DNA from: Clostridia bacterium
Lineage (GTDB): Bacteria; Bacillota; Clostridia; Oscillospirales; CAG-382
Direction: 5' to 3'
Length of the DNA: 64,000 nt
Assembly (NCBI GenBank): GCA_017620655.1
Contig: JAGAUT010000087.1
Coordinates: 2,384-66,383 of the forward strand
This document shows, in pieces, positions 14,180 to 51,258 of this stretch (positions within the stretch are counted from its first letter, which is position 1; each line of letters starts with the position of its first letter). Under the pieces are notes generated by a model. That model did no database searches and was not told the origin of the DNA. It worked only from the letters and a program-made list of their open reading frames with translations. Made by a program: the position numbers and the translations under genes.

Positions 14180-14312
14180 GGTTCCGTCTCCTTTTGGATT
14201 TCATATAACTCTCCGCATACATTTTACCACAGTTATTTATCTTTTTCAACAACATTTACTCTGATATTTGTAAAGAAAAAAGAAGCACCGATATCCGACG
14301 CTTCAAAAACAC

Positions 14313-14747
14313 TTATTTTAGTTTATTTATAATCTCATCCATGGCATGGACATATCCTTCGAAGCCCTCGCCCGCAATTCTTGCAAAGCAGTACTTTCCA
14401 ACATAGGAAATCTGTCTGAAATCCTCTCTTGAGTCAACGTCGGAAATATGCACCTCTACTGCAGGAATATTAACAGCTTTGAGTGCATCGAGAATCGCAA
14501 CGCTTGTGTGAGTATATGCCGCAGGGTTTATCACTATTCCGTCAATTTTATGAAAATACGCCCACTGGATTTTATCAACAATATCCCCTTCGTGGTTTGA
14601 CTGGAATATTGTGACATCAACATTTCTATCTTTTGCCGCCTCATTTATCATTTCGCAAAGGTCACAATAGGTGTTTTTGCCGTAAATATCAGGTTCACGT
14701 ATACCTAAAAAGTTAAGGTTTGGACCGTTTATAACAAGAATTTTCAT
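14313..14747 (-). CDS. aroQ: type II 3-dehydroquinate dehydratase
   Basis: MKILVINGPNLNFLGIREPDIYG...FQSNHEG...INPAAYTHTSVA hallmark blocks. Confidence 0.9.
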   Translation of the reverse strand: MKILVINGPNLNFLGIREPDIYGKNTYCDLCEMINEAAKDRNVDVTIFQSNHEGDIVDKIQWAYFHKIDGIVINPAAYTHTSVAILDALKAVNIPAVEVHISDVDSREDFRQISYVGKYCFARIAGEGFEGYVHAMDEIINKLK

Positions 14748-14758
14748 AAGTATTCTCC

Positions 14759-16003
14759 TTAAAAGAGCTTTGGTAATTCTTCAAGTATCATTTTATAGAG
14801 TCTGTCTGCACATTCTTCGACATCCTCATGGGTTTCGATTACAACATCCGCCGCATTCTCGTAAAGTGCGTGTCTTTCTTCATAAAGCTTAAGTATTTTT
14901 TCATCTCCGCCCTGAGAAAGAGGTCTTCCTTCGGTTGACAGCTTATCAAGGTCACGTTTGAGATACACGACAACGCCGTTCTGCTTCATCAGCTCGACGT
15001 TCTTTTCCCTCTTTACCGCACCGCCGCCCGTTGCGATAACCTTTTCGCTCATAGACGAAAGCATCTGTATCGCCGCCGTTTCTTTATCACGAAAGGCTTC
15101 TTCGCCGTACTTTTCAAATATTTCTGGTATCGGCATACCTGCCTGCTCAACAAAAATGTCAGTATCAAGGAAGGAACGGCAGGTAAGGTTTGCATATGCT
15201 TTTCCTATGCTTGTTTTTCCGCATCCGGGCATACCGACAAAAACAACATTGAGTATTTTCATAAGGCACTTGAAGTAAACTTCCTCAATAACAGCATCAT
15301 CAACCTTTGTATCAAAGAAGTATTCATGTGCTCTTACTGCCTGTGCCACAAGCATGGGAAGTCCTGTTGTTGCAGGAATACTACGTTTTTCAGCCTCGAT
15401 TACAAGGGCAGTTCTTATGGGGTTATAGATAACATCAACAACGCCCGAAAGATTTTTGAAAATTGACAGATCCACAGGAGCTCTGCCATTGTCGGGGTAC
15501 ATTCCGACAGGCGTTGTATTGATAAGAACATCGGCATCGGCATGGTCTGAAATATTATTGTAATTAACTTCGCCTTTTCGTGAAACAACTACCGTTTCTC
15601 TTGCGCCCTCACCCTTACATACGGCACGCGAGGTAAGGCTTGTGCCGCCGCTTCCGAGGATTACGACCTTTTTATTCTTAAGTGTAATGCCTGCCCTGTT
15701 TAACATATAAACAAAGCCGAAATAGTCTGTATTATAGCCGTAAAGTGTTCCGTTTTTATTGACGACAGTATTGACAGAGCCTATTGCCTTTGCTTCATCC
15801 GATACGACATCACAGAGATTAAGTGCATCCTGTTTATAGGGAATTGTAACATTGAGAGCTGCAAAGTTTTTTGACTCGAAAAGCTCATAGAGTTCATCCT
15901 TTTCAAGACTCAAAAGCTCATATTTGTCGTTTCCGAGATACTCGTGTATTATTTTGGAATAGCTGTGCTTCAGCGTTCTTCCGCAAAGTCCGTAACTTAT
16001 CAT
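14759..16003 (-). CDS. bifunctional shikimate dehydrogenase (N-terminal) / shikimate kinase (C-terminal) fusion
   Basis: The N-terminal ~245 aa are AroE-like (SKIIHEY, NVTIPYK, GSVNT, GYNTDYFG, ILGSGGTS). The C-terminal ~165 aa are AroK-like with Walker A GMPGCGKTSIG and GGGAV. Confidence 0.85.
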   Translation of the reverse strand: MISYGLCGRTLKHSYSKIIHEYLGNDKYELLSLEKDELYELFESKNFAALNVTIPYKQDALNLCDVVSDEAKAIGSVNTVVNKNGTLYGYNTDYFGFVYMLNRAGITLKNKKVVILGSGGTSLTSRAVCKGEGARETVVVSRKGEVNYNNISDHADADVLINTTPVGMYPDNGRAPVDLSIFKNLSGVVDVIYNPIRTALVIEAEKRSIPATTGLPMLVAQAVRAHEYFFDTKVDDAVIEEVYFKCLMKILNVVFVGMPGCGKTSIGKAYANLTCRSFLDTDIFVEQAGMPIPEIFEKYGEEAFRDKETAAIQMLSSMSEKVIATGGGAVKREKNVELMKQNGVVVYLKRDLDKLSTEGRPLSQGGDEKILKLYEERHALYENAADVVIETHEDVEECADRLYKMILEELPKLF

Positions 16004-16021
16004 GGGTTATCACTCTTTTTG

Positions 16022-17179
16022 CTAAATTTCAATATAGTTTCCGAGGAATACAAATTCTTCGGGACGATTATCAAGCTCGCAAAGATACGAAATCAAATCC
16101 TCGGAAAGTCCATAGCTTTCGATTTCGGCATAGAACATGAATTCAAAGTCACGCCCCTTGATAGGACGGCTTTCAAGCTTTGAAAGGTTTACGCCGATTA
16201 CATTAAATCTTGAAAGTATGCTGACAAGGCTTCCTGCTCTGTGGGGAACGGTGAACATAATCGCAATCTTTGATGAGCCGGGGTAAATTTCAAGGTCTTT
16301 TGATATACAGATAAATCTTGTATGGTTATTATCACTGTTCTGAAGGTCATCTTCGAGGACAGAAAGTCCGTAAAGTGCGGCGCAGTCATAGGAAGAAATT
16401 GCCGCCACGTCGCATCGAGTGCTCTCAGACACCATCTTTGCCGCCATTGCCGTATTCTTACATACATTCACATTAATTTCGGGGTGATTTCTGAAAAATT
16501 CACTGCACTGTCCGATTGCCTGAGAGTGGGAATAAACTTCTTTTATATCGGATATTTCAGTGCCCTTTTTACCAAGAAGGACATGGTGAATGGGTATCTT
16601 TATACATCTTACGATATGGATTTTATTCTTAAATTCCTTAAGTAAGTCATATACTTCGCCAACCGAGCCGTGAAGGCTGTTTTCTATGGGAAGCACACCG
16701 TACTTGCATTCCCCGTCAGCAACCATTCTGAAGGCATCCCTGAAGGTTTCGGCGTAGGAAATATCGGGACGTCTGAATAATCTTTCGCAGGCTATCTGGG
16801 AATACGCACCCTCAACACCCTGACAGGCAACCTTTGCAACGGCAGGAAAATATTCTGCCGTATTCGCCTTTGCCTCTTTTATGTCAAGTGCCAGTTTTGA
16901 ATCGCCTGAAAGCAGTTTGTTTTGTCTTGCACGGGAAATTTCAAATATTGAATTATAGAGAACAGAAACATAGTTTGCCATTTCATCGTCGAGATTCTCC
17001 GTGAGATTCTTTACAATAGCCCTTTCCCGTGACGGGTCAAAAACAGGCTTTCCGGTCTGTCTTTTAGCCTCTGCAACCTGAGCAGAAACACCCATTCTTT
17101 CGGTGAAAAGCTTTACAAGTTCATTATCTATATTGTCTATTCTCTGTCTGAGTTCTGAAAGTTCCATGGTTTCCTCCAA
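16022..17179 (-). CDS. pheA: bifunctional chorismate mutase / prephenate dehydratase (P-protein)
   Basis: AroQ-class CM N-terminus (LRQRIDNIDNELVKLFTERM), a PDT domain (ENSLHGSV, TRF) and a C-terminal ACT domain. Confidence 0.9.
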   Translation of the reverse strand: MEETMELSELRQRIDNIDNELVKLFTERMGVSAQVAEAKRQTGKPVFDPSRERAIVKNLTENLDDEMANYVSVLYNSIFEISRARQNKLLSGDSKLALDIKEAKANTAEYFPAVAKVACQGVEGAYSQIACERLFRRPDISYAETFRDAFRMVADGECKYGVLPIENSLHGSVGEVYDLLKEFKNKIHIVRCIKIPIHHVLLGKKGTEISDIKEVYSHSQAIGQCSEFFRNHPEINVNVCKNTAMAAKMVSESTRCDVAAISSYDCAALYGLSVLEDDLQNSDNNHTRFICISKDLEIYPGSSKIAIMFTVPHRAGSLVSILSRFNVIGVNLSKLESRPIKGRDFEFMFYAEIESYGLSEDLISYLCELDNRPEEFVFLGNYIEI

Positions 17180-17182
17180 GGT

Positions 17183-18256
17183 TTAAAGCACAAACTGTGC
17201 CAACGCTATTGCCATTGCCGCTTCAATACAAGGTACGGCTCTCTGCACAATACAGGGGTCGTGTCTTCCCTTGATTTCAAGCACATCATTCTCACACGTC
17301 ATCAGATTCACGGTATTCTGTGCCTTTGCTATCGAAGGTGTAGGCTTCATTGCAACTTTAAAGGAAATCGGCATACCCGTTGCCATACCGCCGCATATAC
17401 CGCCTGCATTATTTGTACGTGTTCTTATATTTTTATCATCATCGTAGTAATATTCGTCGTTATTCTGCGAGCCGAAAAGCAGTGATGAACCAAAGCCGAG
17501 CCCAAATTCAATTCCCTTAACCGCAGGAATACCGAAAACAGCATGGGCAATCACATTTTCAAGTCCGTCAAACATAGGCTCGCCGACACCTACGGGAACA
17601 CCGACTGCCATACACTCTATAGTGCCGCCGACAGAGTCAAGGTTTGCCTTTGCTTCAAGGATTTTTGACTTCATTTCTTCGCCCTTATCATCATCTAGCA
17701 CAGGGAAATCCTTTTTAGAAGCCGACTGAAGAAGGTCTATATCAAAGCTTGTGTTATCAAAAGACGCATCCTCAATATTACCGATTGAGGAAATGTGAGC
17801 ACCGATATATACTCCCTTTTCTTTCAGGCACTGCATGATTATTGCACCTGCAATACATATGGGTGCCGTAAGTCGTCCCGAAAACTGTCCGCCGCCCCTT
17901 ACATCATAGGAATCGCCGAACTTTATATTTGCGGGATAATCTGCGTGAGACGGTCTCATTTTGGCACGAAGTTCACTGTAATCCTTTGAATGCTGATCCT
18001 TATTGTAAATCACAGCAGTCAAAGGCGCTCCAACCGTTTTTCCGTCAACAAGTCCCGAAATATATTCTACTTTATCGGCTTCTTTTCTGTTTGTGGAATA
18101 GGCGTTTTTGCCGGGTGCACGTCTGTCCAGAAACTCCTGTACCTTATCTGTATCCACCACAACTCCCGAAGGAAGTCCGTCAATAGTTACACCGATTGCT
18201 TCGGCATGGGACTGTCCGAAAACTGTTATTTTTATTTTATTTCCGAATGTATTCAT
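17183..18256 (-). CDS. aroC: chorismate synthase
   Basis: GQSHAEAIG, RPSHAD, GGGQFSGR and RHDPC motifs. Confidence 0.9.
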   Translation of the reverse strand: MNTFGNKIKITVFGQSHAEAIGVTIDGLPSGVVVDTDKVQEFLDRRAPGKNAYSTNRKEADKVEYISGLVDGKTVGAPLTAVIYNKDQHSKDYSELRAKMRPSHADYPANIKFGDSYDVRGGGQFSGRLTAPICIAGAIIMQCLKEKGVYIGAHISSIGNIEDASFDNTSFDIDLLQSASKKDFPVLDDDKGEEMKSKILEAKANLDSVGGTIECMAVGVPVGVGEPMFDGLENVIAHAVFGIPAVKGIEFGLGFGSSLLFGSQNNDEYYYDDDKNIRTRTNNAGGICGGMATGMPISFKVAMKPTPSIAKAQNTVNLMTCENDVLEIKGRHDPCIVQRAVPCIEAAMAIALAQFVL

Positions 18257-18268
18257 AAAATCTCTCCA

Positions 18269-19528
18269 CTAGCTTCTCATATTGAGTCTGTCAAAATCCG
18301 AGAAGAATGTTGTATAGGATTTTTCAACCGCCTGTGCGCCCTCGATTATAACCTGATTTTTACAAATAAGAGAGCATACGGCACTTGACATTACAATTCT
18401 ATGGTCATTATGACCGACAACCGTACCGCCGTCAAGTTTGCCTTTGCCTTCAATTTCAAGGCCGTCATCGGTAACGGTAACATCTGCACCGAGACGTGTC
18501 AGAAAATCGCGTGTTGTTTCAAGTCTGTCGCTTTCTTTAAGGCGAAGACGCTTTGCACCGTAAATTCTTGTCTTTCCTCTTGCGGCACAAGCAACAACCG
18601 ACAGCACCGGAACAAGGTCGGGAATGTTACTTGCATCTATTTCAACGCCGTGAAGTCTTCCTGCTTCAATAAGCAAGCCATCTTCGGTAACTATTTTCTT
18701 TGCACCGAATTTTTCAAGTATCTCAATGACCTTTCTGTCGCCCTGAGGACAGCTTTCATCAAGTCCCGAAAGCACAACATTTGCACCCAGTGCATCTGCA
18801 CAAAGCCAGAATGCGGCACTTGACCAGTCGCCCTGTGACCTAATTTCATGGGGTGATGTATAGTTCTGATTGGGAAGCACCTTGTAGCTGTTTTCGCTCT
18901 TTTCGATTTTTATGCCGAACTTTGTCATGGTATCAACCGTCATATCAACATAGCCTGCAGATTCAAGGGGTGTTGTGATTCTGACTTCACCGCCTTCAGG
19001 GAAAAGCGGAAGCATGAGAAGAAGTCCGCTGATATACTGACTGCTGATATTGCCGGGAATTTCATATACATCGCCGCGTTTTACGTTTGTTGAAACAGTA
19101 ATCGGCAGTTTATCCGACGAGAAAACAGCACCGCCCATCTTCAGACTTTCGCAAAGCGGTGAAAATGGTCTTTCGGGAAGTCTTCCGCTGCCCACAAGCG
19201 TTACATTCTTACATATTGCCGCAGCAATCGGCAGAAGAAATCGTGCTGTTGAGCCGCTTTCGGCGCAGTCAAGAGTAAGACCCTGCATTATCATTGATTT
19301 ATCGCAAGGGATAACCGTTATACAGCCGTCAAGAAACTCAGCCTTTGCACCGAGCATTTTTACACACTCAACAGTTGTGATAATATCCTTTGAAAGACCT
19401 GTAAATCTTATCTTTGTTGGTTTATCTGAAAGAGCCGCACAGATAATACATCTGTGTATATCGGATTTTGATGAAATTATATCCAATGTCCCCGAAAGCA
19501 CTGTTTTGGGGTCGAGGGTTACTGTCAT
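18269..19528 (-). CDS. aroA: 3-phosphoshikimate 1-carboxyvinyltransferase (EPSP synthase)
   Basis: SKSDIHR, ESGSTARFLLP, LKESDRL and DHRIVMS motifs. Confidence 0.9.
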   Translation of the reverse strand: MTVTLDPKTVLSGTLDIISSKSDIHRCIICAALSDKPTKIRFTGLSKDIITTVECVKMLGAKAEFLDGCITVIPCDKSMIMQGLTLDCAESGSTARFLLPIAAAICKNVTLVGSGRLPERPFSPLCESLKMGGAVFSSDKLPITVSTNVKRGDVYEIPGNISSQYISGLLLMLPLFPEGGEVRITTPLESAGYVDMTVDTMTKFGIKIEKSENSYKVLPNQNYTSPHEIRSQGDWSSAAFWLCADALGANVVLSGLDESCPQGDRKVIEILEKFGAKKIVTEDGLLIEAGRLHGVEIDASNIPDLVPVLSVVACAARGKTRIYGAKRLRLKESDRLETTRDFLTRLGADVTVTDDGLEIEGKGKLDGGTVVGHNDHRIVMSSAVCSLICKNQVIIEGAQAVEKSYTTFFSDFDRLNMRS

Positions 19529-19547
19529 TATTTTCAGTCCTTTTTAT

Positions 19548-20603
19548 TTATAACGCTTGAGAAAAAATTTCCTTTAAGTCTTCGACATTCACATCGTAAA
19601 GAATACACTTACCGATTTTTTCGGGAAGCACAAGAGTAAGTTTTCCTCCGCCGCGTTTTTTATCAGAAAGTGCCGCATCACAGAGCTGTTCGGGTGTGAT
19701 GTCGTACTTTATCGGAAGATTGTATTTTGTAAGCATATTTTCGACTTCTTTATATGTCCCTTTTTCGCATATTCCGAAGTTTTCTGCTATCTTTGTTGCA
19801 ATTACCGTACCTACCGCAACTGCCTGTCCGTGGGTAAGAGAATATGCGCTTACCTTTTCAATGCCGTGTGCCGCCGTATGACCGAGATTCAACAGCTTTC
19901 TTTCGCCGTTATCAAACTCATCCTTTTCAACTACATCACGTTTGAAAATCACGCACTTTTCAACAATTTCATTTATATCGTTTTCATCCTGCATAAGCTT
20001 GTCGCAGAACGCTTTTTCAAAAAGAATACCGTATTTTATTACCTCTGCATATCCGCACGCCACTTCTTTTTCGGGAAGAGTTTTGAATGTGTCAGTATCG
20101 CAGATAACGGCTATCGGCTGATAGAAAGCACCTGCAAGGTTTTTACCTGCTCTTAAATCTATTGCCGTCTTACCGCCGACCGAAGAATCCACCGCCGCAA
20201 GAAGGGTTGTGGGAATCTGAACAAAGTCAATACCCCTGAGGTAGCAGGATGCCGCAAAGCCTGTAATATCACCCACAACTCCGCCGCCGAGTGCTACAAG
20301 AAGGTCGCTTCGTGTAATCTTTTCGGATGCAAGAAATTCCAGAATATCAATAAAGGTTCCAGCACACTTTGACGTTTCACCTGCCGGGAAAACGTATTTA
20401 TCGGCAGGATAGCCTGCTTTTATCAAAGATTCCATTACAGTATCGGTATAAAGCTCATCGACGTTTGAATCGGTGACTATTACTGCACGGCAAGGCTTCT
20501 TGATTTTGTTCAGCATCTCGCCGACATTTTTAAGAACACCTGTGCCTATTGTAATATCATAGCTTCCCGATGCCTTTACGGATACGGTTTTTATATTGTT
20601 CAT
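19548..20603 (-). CDS. aroB: 3-dehydroquinate synthase
   Basis: GGGVVGDITGFAA, DSSVGGKT and HTAAHGIE motifs. The ATG at 20603 (MNNIKTV) has the AAAGGTG RBS. The longer track ORF (to 20720) overlaps the end of tyrA and is rejected. Confidence 0.9.
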   Translation of the reverse strand: MNNIKTVSVKASGSYDITIGTGVLKNVGEMLNKIKKPCRAVIVTDSNVDELYTDTVMESLIKAGYPADKYVFPAGETSKCAGTFIDILEFLASEKITRSDLLVALGGGVVGDITGFAASCYLRGIDFVQIPTTLLAAVDSSVGGKTAIDLRAGKNLAGAFYQPIAVICDTDTFKTLPEKEVACGYAEVIKYGILFEKAFCDKLMQDENDINEIVEKCVIFKRDVVEKDEFDNGERKLLNLGHTAAHGIEKVSAYSLTHGQAVAVGTVIATKIAENFGICEKGTYKEVENMLTKYNLPIKYDITPEQLCDAALSDKKRGGGKLTLVLPEKIGKCILYDVNVEDLKEIFSQAL

Positions 20604-20622
20604 GAAAAACACCTTTCTGTGT

Positions 20623-21480
20623 TTATTTGCGGCGTACTCTTCCCTGTTCAACAGAAGTCCAGGAGGCAATACGTTTCTGCTTACCGTCGGTAAGAAGTGC
20701 CATGAGAGCGTCTCTGTCACCTATGGAAATTGCCTCATAATATTCTGTAAGGTTATCTATAAGCACCTTGAGTTCTCCAAGCAGGAAGTCCTTGTTCTGC
20801 AGGAAAAGCTCAGACCACATATTTTCATTGAGGTACGCAACTCTTGTCATGTCCTTGAACGAGCCCGCCGAAAAGCCTAAATTCTGCAAAGATGTAGGGC
20901 TCTTTACATATGCACTTGATGCAATATGTGCAAGCTGGGAGGTATATGCAATAATCTTATCGTGTTCTTCGGCTGTAGTAACCGTAATTCTGTAGAAGCC
21001 GAGAGAGATAAAGAACATTTTTGCATAGTCAAGAGTTCTTGCATCTATATCTTCATCCGGTACCATAATCATAAATGCACCGTCAAAAAGGCTGTCTGTC
21101 GAGTAGTCATAGCCTGACTTTTCGATACCTGCCATTGGGTGTCCGCCGATAAAGGTAAAGCCGCTTTTCTTTGCAACCGGGAAAAGCTCTGTGCAAACCT
21201 TAGTCTTTGTACCGCCGCAGTCAATTACGATTGTATCTTTGAGATTATCTGCATTTTTCTTTACAAATTCAACTATATCGTCGGGATAAAGTGCAACAAC
21301 AACTATATCACATTTGTCAAGTGTTAAATCAAGCTCGCCGTCTATAGTGCCGTCAAGTCTTGCACTTTCCATCACCTTATCGCTCATGTCATATCCGAGA
21401 ACAATAAAATCCGTATGCTTTCTTATTGTTTTTGCTATCGATGCACCGATAAGACCAAGTCCTACTACACCTACTGTCAT
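20623..21480 (-). CDS. tyrA: prephenate dehydrogenase
   Basis: N-terminal GxGxxG (VGLGLIGAS) and GGHPMAG motif. It is the first gene of the aromatic operon. Confidence 0.85.
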   Translation of the reverse strand: MTVGVVGLGLIGASIAKTIRKHTDFIVLGYDMSDKVMESARLDGTIDGELDLTLDKCDIVVVALYPDDIVEFVKKNADNLKDTIVIDCGGTKTKVCTELFPVAKKSGFTFIGGHPMAGIEKSGYDYSTDSLFDGAFMIMVPDEDIDARTLDYAKMFFISLGFYRITVTTAEEHDKIIAYTSQLAHIASSAYVKSPTSLQNLGFSAGSFKDMTRVAYLNENMWSELFLQNKDFLLGELKVLIDNLTEYYEAISIGDRDALMALLTDGKQKRIASWTSVEQGRVRRK

Positions 21481-21525
21481 ATTATAACACCTCTTGCATT
21501 AATTTTCAACAAATATATATTAAAT

Positions 21526-21554
21526 AAAAAATCCGCAGCGTTTTTTCACTGCGG
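21526..21554 (-). terminator. leader (attenuator) terminator upstream of tyrA
   Basis: Minus-strand RNA CCGCAGUG-AAAAAA-CGCUGCGG (8 bp including one G-U), followed by AUUUUUUAUUU. It lies 46 nt upstream of the tyrA ATG and downstream of the promoter. Confidence 0.7.
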
Positions 21555-21588
21555 TCTTCTGTTTACATATGCAAAAACAAACCCGAAC

Positions 21589-21675
21589 TTATGCACAGCA
21601 ACAAAAGACCTTATCACAATAACCGATAAAGCCATAATAAAAATAAAACTGTGTATACATGTTGGTTGTCTTCAT
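21589..21675 (-). CDS. candidate aromatic-operon leader peptide (28 aa, Tyr/Phe-rich)
   Basis: ATG at 21675 has GGAG 7 nt upstream. Peptide MKTTNMYTQFYFYYGFIGYCDKVFCCCA with stop TAA 21591-21589. It is too short for the ORF track. Confidence 0.5.
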   Translation of the reverse strand: MKTTNMYTQFYFYYGFIGYCDKVFCCCA

Positions 21676-21704
21676 TTTTTCTCTCCGAAAATACATTTTT
21701 TGAT

Positions 21705-21733
21705 ATTATACTACCGCCGTCATTTCATGTCAA
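21705..21733 (-). promoter_or_regulatory. consensus sigma-A promoter of the aromatic operon
   Basis: Minus strand: TTGACA (21733-21728), 17-nt spacer, TATAAT (21710-21705). Confidence 0.7.
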
Positions 21734-21815
21734 GAATTTATACAAAAGTTAATATTTTTTTAACCTGTGTTCTTATTTTGAGCTTTTATTCACACTACGG
21801 CAACATTTTTGAGCA

Positions 21816-21843
21816 ACAAAAAGGACGGATTAAACCGCCCTTT
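21816..21843 (-). terminator. intrinsic terminator after the LtaS-family gene
   Basis: Minus-strand GGGCGG-UUUAAU-CCGUCC followed by UUUUU, 7 nt after the stop at 21850. Confidence 0.6.
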
Positions 21844-21849
21844 GTCAAG

Positions 21850-23769
21850 TCATTCAGCATTAAAATTTGTACCGGTGTAATATGCCGCACCCTTGAAGTC
21901 GCTGTATATTTCCGAAAGCTTTTCGGGCATTTCCTCTGTAAGATAAAAGTCGCCGTTTTTATCAATTATTCCGACTTCATTAAGGACGGGGATTTCCTTC
22001 ATGACAGTATCCGTATACTGCATATATGCACTTCCCTCATACCCGAGGCTGTCAAAAAGCACATTCATAAGGAAACAGGGGCTTGTCATGGGTCCCTCCC
22101 CGACAAAATCCTTGTCGAGAAGCTCCTTTGCCGCATCATTGGCTACTATCACATATTCTGTTCCGTAATAATTGAGGAAGCCTTCCTTTGTTGACACGTC
22201 AATGTTTATACCAAGTTCCTCATACACGCTGTTGCCGTCTCCCAGCCACGGTTTATGGTCGCCGAAAACTATTAAAACGCAAGGCTCTTCTCTTTGCTTG
22301 ATTTTCTCCACAAACTGCCAGAGTCTCCAGCCGGTATCCTTGATTGTGCCGAAATAGTTATTAAGAATACAGTCGGTTTCAGACGAAACATCCGCTCCGT
22401 GATACAAGGGATTTTCGTCGGTTCCCCAATATTTTCCCGTTGTTTCGTAGGGTGCATGCCCCTGATAGGTCACATGAAAACCGAAATACGGGTTTGTTTC
22501 AGTATCGACGTGAGAGACATAGTTTTCATAAAAGTCATCAAAAACAATACTGTCTGCACGCATCATATCACCGTACTTTTCGAGGAAGTAATTCTCTGCA
22601 AAGCGGTATTGCGAAAAACCGAGGTAACCGTTTGAGTTCTGTCTGTTATAGAACCAGTTTTCGGAAGGGTGGCTTCCGTCAACGGTATAGCCCTGAGAAG
22701 AAAAGAATCTTACATGGGAATTCACGTTTCTTCTGTAATCCTCGATATCGGGATATCCCGTAAGAAAGGCTCTTTCGGAATCAATTGTTCCTGCGGCAAA
22801 GATATTTGTCACAAGAGTACCCGAAAGATTCTCATCTTTCAGCATACGGTAAAGCTCATAAACGCTTTTGTCAATGCCTTCAATTCCGATATTTTCAAGA
22901 TCACAATACGCCTCAAGCATAACACCGATGACATTTACCCTTTTATCTTTATCGATTTTTCCGTCTTTATATTCCGACAAAAGCTCTTTTGACCTTTTTT
23001 CGTTATAGCCCTCGGGCTTTACATCAAGCACCTCGGCTATGCTGTGAACAAAGGGATACACAAAGCCTTTGGCAACATATTTCTGTGTCGGTGCCCATCT
23101 TATAACAACATCGTAATTATCGGTTTTCTTATCGTAGACATCCTTTCCGAGATAAACATCCGTAAGCATGAAGGATACTGTCAACACAAGTGTCACAGCA
23201 TACAGTCTTGAAGAAAAGCTTGGCACAAATCTCTGGAACAGGGCAAGCACAACCACAAAAAACAGGCATGCAAGTATTCCGCCAATCATTTCATCCGTCA
23301 GTTCGTACTTATAGCCCTCGGAGGAAATCTGAAGTGCTTCTCTGAAATAGAGAATATCCGAAAACATAAGCACATCGTCGCGGAACTTGAGAAGAAAGAA
23401 ATTTGCAAAGGTAAGTCCGAGTACAATTATGCTTTCGGCAAGATAGCAAATCCATCCCCTGCCGATAAGTGCATACAGCACAACAAAAAGTCCCAATACA
23501 GGAAGAAAGTTGAGAAGAAGAATAAGAGGATTCTCAAAATATCCGTCAAAAACCCTGTCGGAATATGCAGGCCCGTAGGCAACCGCAAGAGAGCTTACGC
23601 ACAGAGCAAAGGCTGCACAGATAACAAGAAAAGCATTGAAAATAAAATACACTGTTCTTTGTCCTGCAGAAAAACCCGCAGTGTTTTTTGACAAAAGCCA
23701 GAAGCTTTTCACATTCGACACAACGTCTTTTACTGAATTCAGCACTTTTCCGGCACTGTTTTTATTCAC
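21850..23769 (-). CDS. LTA synthase family (sulfatase/alkaline-phosphatase superfamily) membrane protein
   Basis: About 5 N-terminal TM helices and a C-terminal extracellular sulfatase-like domain (GVMLEAY, FAAGTIDSE, FGDHKPWLG). GTG at 23769 with AGGAG 7 nt upstream is preferred over the ATG at 23817. Confidence 0.75.
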   Translation of the reverse strand: MNKNSAGKVLNSVKDVVSNVKSFWLLSKNTAGFSAGQRTVYFIFNAFLVICAAFALCVSSLAVAYGPAYSDRVFDGYFENPLILLLNFLPVLGLFVVLYALIGRGWICYLAESIIVLGLTFANFFLLKFRDDVLMFSDILYFREALQISSEGYKYELTDEMIGGILACLFFVVVLALFQRFVPSFSSRLYAVTLVLTVSFMLTDVYLGKDVYDKKTDNYDVVIRWAPTQKYVAKGFVYPFVHSIAEVLDVKPEGYNEKRSKELLSEYKDGKIDKDKRVNVIGVMLEAYCDLENIGIEGIDKSVYELYRMLKDENLSGTLVTNIFAAGTIDSERAFLTGYPDIEDYRRNVNSHVRFFSSQGYTVDGSHPSENWFYNRQNSNGYLGFSQYRFAENYFLEKYGDMMRADSIVFDDFYENYVSHVDTETNPYFGFHVTYQGHAPYETTGKYWGTDENPLYHGADVSSETDCILNNYFGTIKDTGWRLWQFVEKIKQREEPCVLIVFGDHKPWLGDGNSVYEELGINIDVSTKEGFLNYYGTEYVIVANDAAKELLDKDFVGEGPMTSPCFLMNVLFDSLGYEGSAYMQYTDTVMKEIPVLNEVGIIDKNGDFYLTEEMPEKLSEIYSDFKGAAYYTGTNFNAE

Positions 23770-23904
23770 TCGTCCCACTCCTTTCCCAAAATAATTCAAA
23801 AAAATCAAAAAAAACAATATTTGGTATTGAAAAACACATCAAACTATATTATAATGAATAAAACAAAATTGTCAACATGACAAATCAAAAGGTGGTAGAA
23901 AATT

Positions 23905-51106: not shown

Positions 51107-51183
51107 GGCGGAATAGCTCAGCTGGCTAGAGCATCCGGTTCATACCCGGCAGGTCGTTGGTTCAAATCCGACTTCCGCTACCA
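51107..51183 (+). tRNA. tRNA-Met (CAU), elongator type
   Basis: Cloverleaf read by eye: acceptor GGCGGAA/TTCCGCT, D-arm GCTC-AGCTGGCTA-GAGC, anticodon loop TTCATAC, T-arm GTTGG-TTCAAAT-CCGAC, encoded CCA. Confidence 0.85.
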
Positions 51184-51258
51184 GGCCCGTTGGTCAAGCG
51201 GTTAAGACACGGCCCTTTCACGGCTGTAACATGGGTTCGATTCCCGTACGGGTCACCA
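51184..51258 (+). tRNA. tRNA-Glu (UUC)
   Basis: Acceptor GGCCCGT/ACGGGTC, anticodon loop CTTTCAC, T-arm ATGGG-TTCGATT-CCCGT, encoded CCA. It starts immediately after the CCA of tRNA-Met. Confidence 0.85.

Follow-up and report, generated by a model that had tools for sequence, protein, structure and literature searches.

A predicted Tyr/Phe leader-peptide attenuator upstream of the tyrA-aroBAC-pheA-aroEK-aroQ operon in Clostridia

Leader-peptide attenuators and the control of aromatic amino acid genes

The pheL, trpL, hisL and pheM-pheST leaders each combine a short open reading frame (ORF) rich in codons for the product amino acid with 1:2, 2:3 and 3:4 helices and a terminator (PMC3082878, PMC11802643). 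A comparable arrangement is present on the minus strand of a 64,000-nucleotide stretch of the genome of an uncultured Clostridia bacterium (assembly GCA_017620655.1, contig JAGAUT010000087.1, positions 2,384 to 66,383), the whole of which is referred to below as the window. Lying between a consensus promoter and the tyrA-aroBAC-pheA-aroEK-aroQ operon, it very probably attenuates transcription by way of a leader peptide and the translating ribosome, with the supply of charged tRNA-Tyr and/or tRNA-Phe as the predicted signal. Its logic matches that of the Escherichia coli pheL-pheA leader, to which the window leader nevertheless shows no sequence or covariance-model similarity. Unlike pheL, it carries Tyr and Phe codons in about equal numbers instead of those of one amino acid, belongs to a Clostridia host, precedes a seven-gene operon that covers both terminal branches and most of the common pathway, and has an antiterminator that overlaps the core terminator by only 2 bp.

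The Corynebacterium glutamicum aroR leader peptide is another close parallel. It controls the aroF operon by attenuation through F-Y-F codons and, as far as the account in PMC11802643 goes, responds to Phe supply and not to Tyr (Neshat et al. 2014, PMC11802643). Like the family described below, it combines mixed Phe/Tyr codons with a shikimate operon, and a DAHP synthase gene comes first in the wider Clostridia family too. Compared by description, this actinobacterial leader has a run of three codons, against four to seven consecutive aromatic codons in the Clostridia family. A second parallel is uORFC-13-1, a predicted upstream ORF (uORF) found before aroF in Acholeplasma and in unassigned environmental sequences (24 representatives), and described as a promoter, a ribosome-binding site and a start codon followed by a Phe-encoding U-run ("at least one" codon) and, directly after it, an intrinsic terminator (PMC8632094). 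It resembles the window leader in placing a Phe-coding uORF before a terminator and a shikimate gene in a Bacillota-related lineage; its description does not include Tyr, and the two are set apart by verbal description only.

Attenuators of the same mechanism and phylum, which differ in amino acid, operon and sequence, are the His leaders of the Bacillus cereus group, Peptostreptococcaceae and Erysipelotrichales and the Leu-rich leader peptide of the Staphylococcus aureus ilv-leu operon (PMC2965389, PMC9413887, PMC5794164). Since such Firmicute attenuators have been predicted or tested, ribosome-mediated attenuation is not foreign to Gram-positive bacteria. The view taken in a preliminary description of this locus, made from the sequence alone, that attenuation of this kind is essentially proteobacterial is thus outdated, all the more so with the Phe uORF of Acholeplasma (PMC8632094).

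T-box and TRAP leaders resemble the window element in their position between promoter and biosynthetic operon and in their output, a choice between terminator and antiterminator; they differ in that the sensor proposed here is the translating ribosome. In Bacilli, aromatic amino acid genes are usually under the control of T-box leaders or TRAP. A scan of the whole window against Rfam 15 at gathering thresholds returned only two adjacent tRNA genes (51107-51255, plus strand), and a scan of positions 21300-22000 with E-values up to 10 returned no T-box and no known amino-acid leader, in line with the earlier statement that no T-box is present. The same procedure detected a T-box (RF00230) at 112.7 bits in the Lachnospiraceae locus L017, which served as a positive control. 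No match to Phe_leader, Trp_leader, His_leader, the Leu/phe leader and similar families was obtained for the Oscillibacter homologue at E-values up to 10. A TRAP site requires nine to eleven (G/U)AG triplets 2-3 nt apart, and the 220-nt leader holds three. No Tyr/Phe leader from Clostridia was found in the literature searched, where a prior description within a cross-phylum attenuator survey is possible. The element therefore appears to be of a known kind and to belong to a sequence family apparently undescribed, set apart from uORFC-13-1 by description.

Organisation of the leader

The elements of the leader, in the order in which they would be transcribed, are as follows.

21728..21733, minus strand: -35 hexamer TTGACA, 12/12 consensus positions together with the -10 hexamer; invariant across ten aligned leaders
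21705..21710, minus strand: -10 hexamer TATAAT, after a 17-nt spacer; exact in eight of the ten aligned leaders, one mismatch in two
21683..21686, minus strand: Shine-Dalgarno sequence GGAG of the leader ORF, 7 nt 5′ of the ATG at 21675
21589..21675, minus strand: leader ORF, 28 codons and TAA, MKTTNMYTQFYFYYGFIGYCDKVFCCCA; equivalents in nine further distinct close relatives
21628..21648, minus strand: putative regulatory run F10-Y-F-Y-Y-G-F16, six of seven residues aromatic; kept in relatives
21657-21655, 21621-21619 and 21606-21604, minus strand: other aromatic codons Y7, Y19 and F24, from reading of the sequence
21653-21648 with 21599-21594, minus strand: outer helix, CACAGU with GCUGUG, enclosing the aromatic codons
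21624..21633, minus strand: segment 1, GGCUUUAUCG, codons 15-18; forms the 1:2 hairpin, with four pairs showing compensatory changes
21600..21616, minus strand: segment 2, of which UGAUAAGGUC pairs with segment 1 and GGUCUUUUGUU with segment 3
21553..21563, minus strand: segment 3, AACAGAAGACC, 3′ arm of the antiterminator; pairs with GGUCUUUUGUU (21610-21600) over 11 bp
21533..21554, minus strand: intrinsic terminator hairpin CCGCAGUG-A6-CGCUGCGG, 8 bp and G+C-rich, -12.9 kcal/mol; best terminator-like site in the scan
21526..21531, minus strand: U6 tract of the terminator, one A separating it from the hairpin; from the sequence and the scan

The promoter, the 28-codon ORF with its GGAG and FYFYYGF run, the intrinsic terminator with its U6 tract and the alternative 11-bp helix had all been recognised in the preliminary description, and each was found where it had been placed; three of its spacings were slightly off, the stop codon lying 34 nt (not 35) from the terminator, the U-tract 45 nt (not 46) from the tyrA ATG, and the helix arm 8 nt (not 9) from the stop. 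The promoter, of the sigma-70 type, is one of two matches of this quality in the 10 kb scanned. The ORF contains five Tyr and four Phe codons, and its stretch of six aromatic residues in seven is unique among the 628 small ORFs of the window (10-60 codons, ATG start, both strands), one other reaching five. Another ATG in the same frame, at 21696, was discounted as the start codon: it has no Shine-Dalgarno sequence, lies about 2 nt from the predicted 5′ end of the transcript and does not occur in relatives.

Two structures absent from the preliminary description complete the leader. One is a hairpin inside the ORF, in which GGCUUUAUCG (21633-21624) pairs with UGAUAAGGUC (21616-21607) over 10 bp (-8.9 kcal/mol); the other is the outer helix around the aromatic codons, which together with hairpin 1:2 amounts to -15.2 kcal/mol. 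Helix 2:3 extends in the window as far as 21573, giving 19 bp and -20.1 kcal/mol, and exclusivity between it and hairpin 1:2 is narrow, the two having GGUC in common. The 181-nt leader as a whole folds at -44.3 kcal/mol (z = -3.0 against dinucleotide shuffles). In the modelled folds, hairpin 1:2, helix 2:3, the terminator and their segments make up the complete four-segment layout of a classical attenuator.

Conservation in close relatives

Contigs were taken for TyrA homologues of 60-89% identity, and a close set was formed by nine distinct loci of uncultured Clostridia genomes (TyrA 67-89% identical) which, with the window, provide ten leaders. In these nine further loci, the spacer 5′ of tyrA measures 310-370 nt, and every one of them carries the element. 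All ten leaders keep the promoter, a start codon, four to six F/Y codons in a run and the three helices, so that the small ORF and its Tyr/Phe codons, singled out earlier as the features to be looked for in orthologous tyrA upstream regions, are indeed retained. The leader peptides of the nine relatives read MSKIYFAHNYFYYGFIGYCGEVFRCRAEICD, MKTNNMNVHNFYFYYFIRK, MTRSRCFFAHNFFYFGFVYFYDKVFRCCALIECA, MNKNTMYFAYNFFYYGFAKR, MKKLIVNVYNQFYYGFVFLEQGLSLLPFKLKV, MNFIGNKKAFYIYYGFVFTFFDKVFRCCAFAG, MKRTSFAYNFYYYFGFAEFEARSFVAL, MKMFDLIKTYFYYYYGFAFNTARSFVVVPSAA and MKISVFNSKYFYYYFGFVFNMTRSFAFCK.

In the ten-leader alignment, helix 1:2 is paired in 92% of cases with four pairs altered on both sides, and the terminator is paired in 100% with two pairs showing double changes. 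Taken together, 95.6% of the cells of these two helices pair, versus 38-51% when the partners are slid, and the observed covariation score was reached by none of 500 shuffles. The antiterminator is paired in 93.6% versus 39-62% when slid. The same three helices were recovered unguided by RNAalifold. At the position of the outer helix, relatives carry ACAAC/GUUGU or AAAAGCA/UGCUUUU.

The frame is open from the ATG through the aromatic run in every locus, with N-terminal sequences and lengths that differ, and the run itself varies by TAT/TAC and F/Y swaps. Beyond the run, translation of the block AAGGUCUUUCGUUG of segment 2 gives K-V-F in some loci and R-S-F in others, and one locus has G-L-S. 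The ORF of two loci ends just before or within segment 2; taking all loci together, the leader stop codon can precede the beginning of segment 2 by up to 6 nt or follow it by up to 34 nt. Because segment 2 is read in three frames and the stops vary, it is conserved as RNA, and the aromatic run alone is conserved as codons. Such a pattern is to be expected if selection acts on a translated run of Tyr/Phe codons just before segment 1; neither a functional peptide nor a purely structural RNA would be expected to show it.

Proposed mechanism and folding tests

Once transcription has begun at the consensus promoter, a ribosome would initiate on the 28-codon ORF of the leader. With Tyr and Phe in ample supply, it would pass through segment 2 to the stop codon and make that segment unavailable; if the leader is untranslated, hairpin 1:2 would form and segment 2 would likewise be unavailable. 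In either case the terminator (21554-21533 and U6) would form, and RNA polymerase would halt 45 nt short of tyrA. Under scarcity of Tyr or Phe, the ribosome would stall within F-Y-F-Y-Y-G-F, covering segment 1 and leaving segment 2 free to pair with segment 3 through a conserved 11-bp core, extended to 19 bp in the window. Helix 2:3 would then capture both C-G pairs at the base of the terminator and allow read-through into tyrA-aroBAC-pheA-aroEK-aroQ. Basal pairs beside the U-tract are those that weigh most in intrinsic termination, and the loss of two of them presumably suffices to prevent it. Translation of the leader ORF and stalling of the ribosome on it are likewise inferred.

Constraint folding is consistent with this scheme and lends support to the earlier suggestion that a stalled ribosome favours the antiterminator and a ribosome at the stop codon the terminator. 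With a ribosome mask placed so that its A-site falls on codons 11-16, helix 2:3 forms all 11 of its pairs and is extended to 19 bp, and the terminator retains six of its eight pairs. The full terminator forms if the ribosome has reached codon 19 or beyond, stands at the stop codon or is absent; hairpin 1:2 re-forms when free of the ribosome. Under the same thermodynamic model, nine of the ten leaders of the close set show this fold switch. In a nascent-RNA test, which takes the sequence between the stalled ribosome and the last nucleotide of the terminator's 5′ arm, the window leader gave z = -3.6, a value reached by none of 200 shuffles.

A wider family in Clostridia

A wider set was drawn from 80 species-level genomes among the matches listed (TyrA alignment against genome contigs), in which TyrA is at most 54% identical to that of the window. 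A covariance model built from the ten leaders, R1, finds matches in about 30 of these 80 genomes, mostly labelled Oscillospiraceae, Oscillibacter, Ruminococcus, Acutalibacteraceae or Clostridia, and nearly all the matches lie some 1.1-1.25 kb 5′ of tyrA. A DAHP synthase gene fills the interval before tyrA in 50 of the 80 loci, where the element heads an aroF-tyrA-aroB-aroA operon. The alignment made from the R1 matches included antisense matches to the palindromic terminator, and the pair counts did not draw on it. An independent screen for ORFs with at least five aromatic residues in seven on the coding strand retrieved 45 of the 80 loci, about 40 of them at the expected place; six stray F/Y ORF matches fell on the other strand. 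Examples of the family are the leaders of Oscillibacter valericigenes (MSTFTFAAEYRYFSFTYYFGKAYFGLAENECV), of loci L007 (MKRNIFAAEYFYFYFINKS), L016 (MKQFNAVTYYYYYYFV) and L001 (MKHFNNSAEYYYYFYYANKI), and of Hominicoprocola fusiformis (MKSIFVFAYYYYFTMDS). In O. valericigenes Sjm18-20, whose leader ORF is at L039:1756-1854, corresponding to about 3,570,149-3,570,247 of AP012044.1, the antiterminator appears to cover most of the 5′ arm of the terminator, so that the overlap would differ between subfamilies.

In the Acutalibacteraceae locus L016 (1-227 and 385-435), an all-Tyr leader, YYYYYYF, and tyrA follow directly after the 3′ end of a 23S rRNA gene, and the leader stands before tyrA rather than before a DAHP synthase gene. 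In L017, which has no F/Y leader, the T-box mentioned above occupies 479-689 on the minus strand, about 2.3 kb from tyrA and on the opposite strand. A metagenome scan with the pattern GGCTTT..AGGTCTTTYG..GACC, which was too loose, returned 120 chance soil and water loci, none of which fit R1, and a plasmid similarity search with the leader found nothing.

Alternative explanations

It could be proposed that the leader is a structured RNA switch sensing a small molecule, a protein or a tRNA, in which the small ORF is incidental to a U/A-rich conserved sequence. The strongly conserved nucleotide blocks GGCUUU and AAGGUCUUUCGUUG, the stable fold with its covarying helices and the conservation of segment 2 as RNA rather than peptide all fit such a switch, which is nonetheless judged very unlikely in view of the coding properties of the family. 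In 47 of 50 leaders, an ATG preceded by an SD-like 4-mer, found in 22% of random 15-mers, opens the frame of the aromatic run. Phe (235) and Tyr (209) make up 33% of the 1336 residues encoded by these 50 leaders, in which Trp occurs twice, whereas the other two frames contain 11-14% aromatics and are full of stops (63 and 91). Tyr is written as TAC (112) and as TAT (97) and F and Y interchange, indicating that the conserved property is "aromatic codon". Moreover, the RNA offers only simple hairpins, without a complex conserved aptamer-like core, and matches no Rfam family, T-box or TRAP site.

The ORF could alternatively encode a functional hydrophobic micropeptide, or act as a uORF that tunes tyrA translation instead of controlling termination. 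Its conservation with a good Shine-Dalgarno sequence and a C-terminal DKVFRCC motif common to some relatives would agree with this, but in other close relatives the C-terminal half is in other frames or missing, and across the family the peptide ranges from 16 to 43 residues with the aromatic run as its sole shared part. A terminator hairpin of 8-16 bp follows 48 of the 50 leaders. In the window, the ORF ends 108 nt from the tyrA start with the terminator in between, too far for translational coupling, and the tyrA Shine-Dalgarno sequence is unsequestered in every predicted fold. Either form of this explanation is accordingly given little credence, about as little as an RNA switch.

That an AT-rich spacer came to hold a TTT/TAT-rich ORF by chance, the hairpin being the terminator of the upstream gene, is a negligible prospect, which the comparison of genomes already refutes: AT-rich intergenic DNA should often contain TTT and TAT, and the leader is 34% G+C, but the upstream gene has a terminator-like hairpin of its own at 21843-21820, so that the leader hairpin is not its terminator, and the consensus promoter then comes before the ORF; no other ORF of the 628 has six aromatic residues in seven; and F/Y runs persist in relatives whose TyrA is 44-54% identical and whose leaders reach 55% G+C, so that AT-richness is not the explanation.

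Attenuation by a ribosome stalled on Tyr or Phe codons is the preferred reading, and several observations weigh against it. The antiterminator and the core terminator stem overlap only at CC 21554-21553, that is, at two basal pairs, and RNAalifold finds the middle 8 bp of helix 2:3 compatible with both other helices; the switch therefore comes down to an exchange of three base pairs at each end of segments 2 and 3. Antitermination may be partial, because a 6-bp hairpin (-7.2 kcal/mol) persists as a truncated terminator in the predicted read-through form. The preliminary description had called for a search for covariation in both the terminator and the antiterminator: compensatory changes are present in the terminator, as in helix 1:2, and the antiterminator has one double change only, the window's own U-A against the C-G of the others, which makes its covariation thin. 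Among 48 family members, the nascent-RNA test is significant at 5% in only 26, and equilibrium folds with the stalled-ribosome mask keep strong terminators of 11-15 bp in most distant members. The equilibrium minimum free energy structure is judged a poor model of a co-transcriptional decision; good support for the antiterminator is therefore confined to the window's clade and to roughly half of the other family members. Bacillota have also been classed as organisms of runaway transcription, which raises the matter of how a ribosome would keep pace with the polymerase (PMC13323073). Finally, one homologue (L085, 60% TyrA identity) has an 86-nt intergenic region 5′ of tyrA without a leader. This region (L085:2415-2500) contains neither leader ORF nor terminator, and the flanking genes are the same (sulfatase-family gene, tyrA, aroB, aroA), as if the attenuator had been lost naturally.

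Implications for aromatic amino acid regulation in Clostridia

As far as sequence comparison goes, the leader defines a new sequence family that is widespread in gut and rumen Clostridia. On balance, the window seems to be a member of a large undescribed family of dual Tyr/Phe attenuators acting as the main regulator of shikimate/Tyr/Phe operons in many Clostridia, a proposal held with rather less assurance than the attenuator itself. If true, the family would extend to at least about 40 of the 80 sampled species-level genomes, mostly Oscillospiraceae/Oscillibacter, in addition to the window's clade, and would account for shikimate/Tyr/Phe control in gut and rumen Clostridia that lack a T-box, TRAP or a known repressor. 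To our knowledge, Tyr is seldom read by leader-peptide attenuators; the aromatic amino acids, and Tyr in particular, would thus join the short list of those with predicted Gram-positive leader-peptide attenuators. Two further consequences would follow: an intrinsic terminator can be governed by a switch that swaps as few as two or three base pairs where three helices meet, and attenuation of the classical ribosome-coupled type is common among members of a phylum classed as one of runaway transcription. Since Bacillota polymerases are classed as outrunning ribosomes (PMC13323073), a terminator switch that depends on the ribosome would be a natural test case for local coupling. The cultured carriers O. 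valericigenes Sjm18-20 and H. fusiformis make the family open to experiment, and the covariance model and the ORF signature could be used to annotate such leaders in metagenome-assembled genomes.

Operon and genomic context

The genes downstream of the leader, identified through their Pfam domains, are listed below with their signals.

21488..21493, minus strand: Shine-Dalgarno sequence GAGGUG of tyrA; kept in close relatives
20623..21480, minus strand: tyrA, prephenate/arogenate dehydrogenase, first regulated gene of the predicted attenuator; Pfam PDH_N and PDH_C
14313..20720, minus strand: remaining operon, six genes after tyrA; Pfam, gene order the same in relatives
19548-20720 (ORF as listed), minus strand: aroB, dehydroquinate synthase; Pfam
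18269-19528, minus strand: aroA, EPSP synthase; Pfam
17183-18256, minus strand: aroC, chorismate synthase; Pfam
16022-17179, minus strand: pheA, chorismate mutase-prephenate dehydratase (CM-PDT); Pfam
14759-16003, minus strand: aroE-aroK fusion, shikimate dehydrogenase-shikimate kinase; Pfam
14313-14747, minus strand: aroQ, type II dehydroquinase; Pfam
14282..14304, minus strand: terminator-like hairpin at the end of the operon; terminator scan

The seven genes thus comprise the tyrA and pheA branch enzymes and enzymes of the common pathway, and the match between operon content and leader codons drawn in the preliminary description is borne out by the Pfam assignments. The aroE-aroK fusion is a single 414-residue ORF with Shikimate_dh_N and SKI domains. 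The longest aroB ORF begins at a GTG 98 nt within tyrA; the true start is probably near 20606, just past the tyrA stop, because the gene calls of relatives are 349-352 residues long and begin 0-30 nt past that stop. In the relatives of 67-72% TyrA identity (L084, L089-L091 and L092), the operon lacks aroB and tyrA is followed by the EPSP synthase gene; L092 has a 141-residue minus-strand ORF between the two. No DAHP synthase gene was found in the window by tblastn; in the window's clade, this first pathway gene has been lost from the attenuated operon or moved elsewhere.

Further conserved sequences flank the leader. Between its terminator and tyrA, a further promoter-like sequence (TTGAAA-17-TATAAT, 11/12, preceded by TG) spans 21481-21509 on the minus strand, its -10 adjoining the tyrA ATG, and the blocks TGTTGAAAAA and GAGGTGTTATAAT at this site are kept in most close relatives. 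It may be the tyrA ribosome-binding region only, an attenuator-independent internal promoter or a protein site. On the other side, A/T-rich blocks 5′ of the -35 hexamer (21737-21800, minus strand; consensus GTAAAGAAAATATTAAnTTTTGTATATATT) are conserved in close relatives and could serve as an UP element or as an operator to which a further regulator binds; TTGTAAACAAAAC, about 60 nt farther upstream, has diverged in the window. A plus-strand ORF of 259 codons (21415-22194) lies antisense to the start of tyrA, the entire leader and the end of the gene upstream. It has no Pfam match, and in relatives its frame is broken by indels that are not multiples of three, so it was dismissed as probably spurious. 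Farther upstream, a perfect TTGACA-16-TATAAT promoter on the minus strand precedes a sulfatase-family (LtaS-like) gene and faces a divergent 11/12 plus-strand promoter, the two sites lying at 23846-23875 and 23827-23855.

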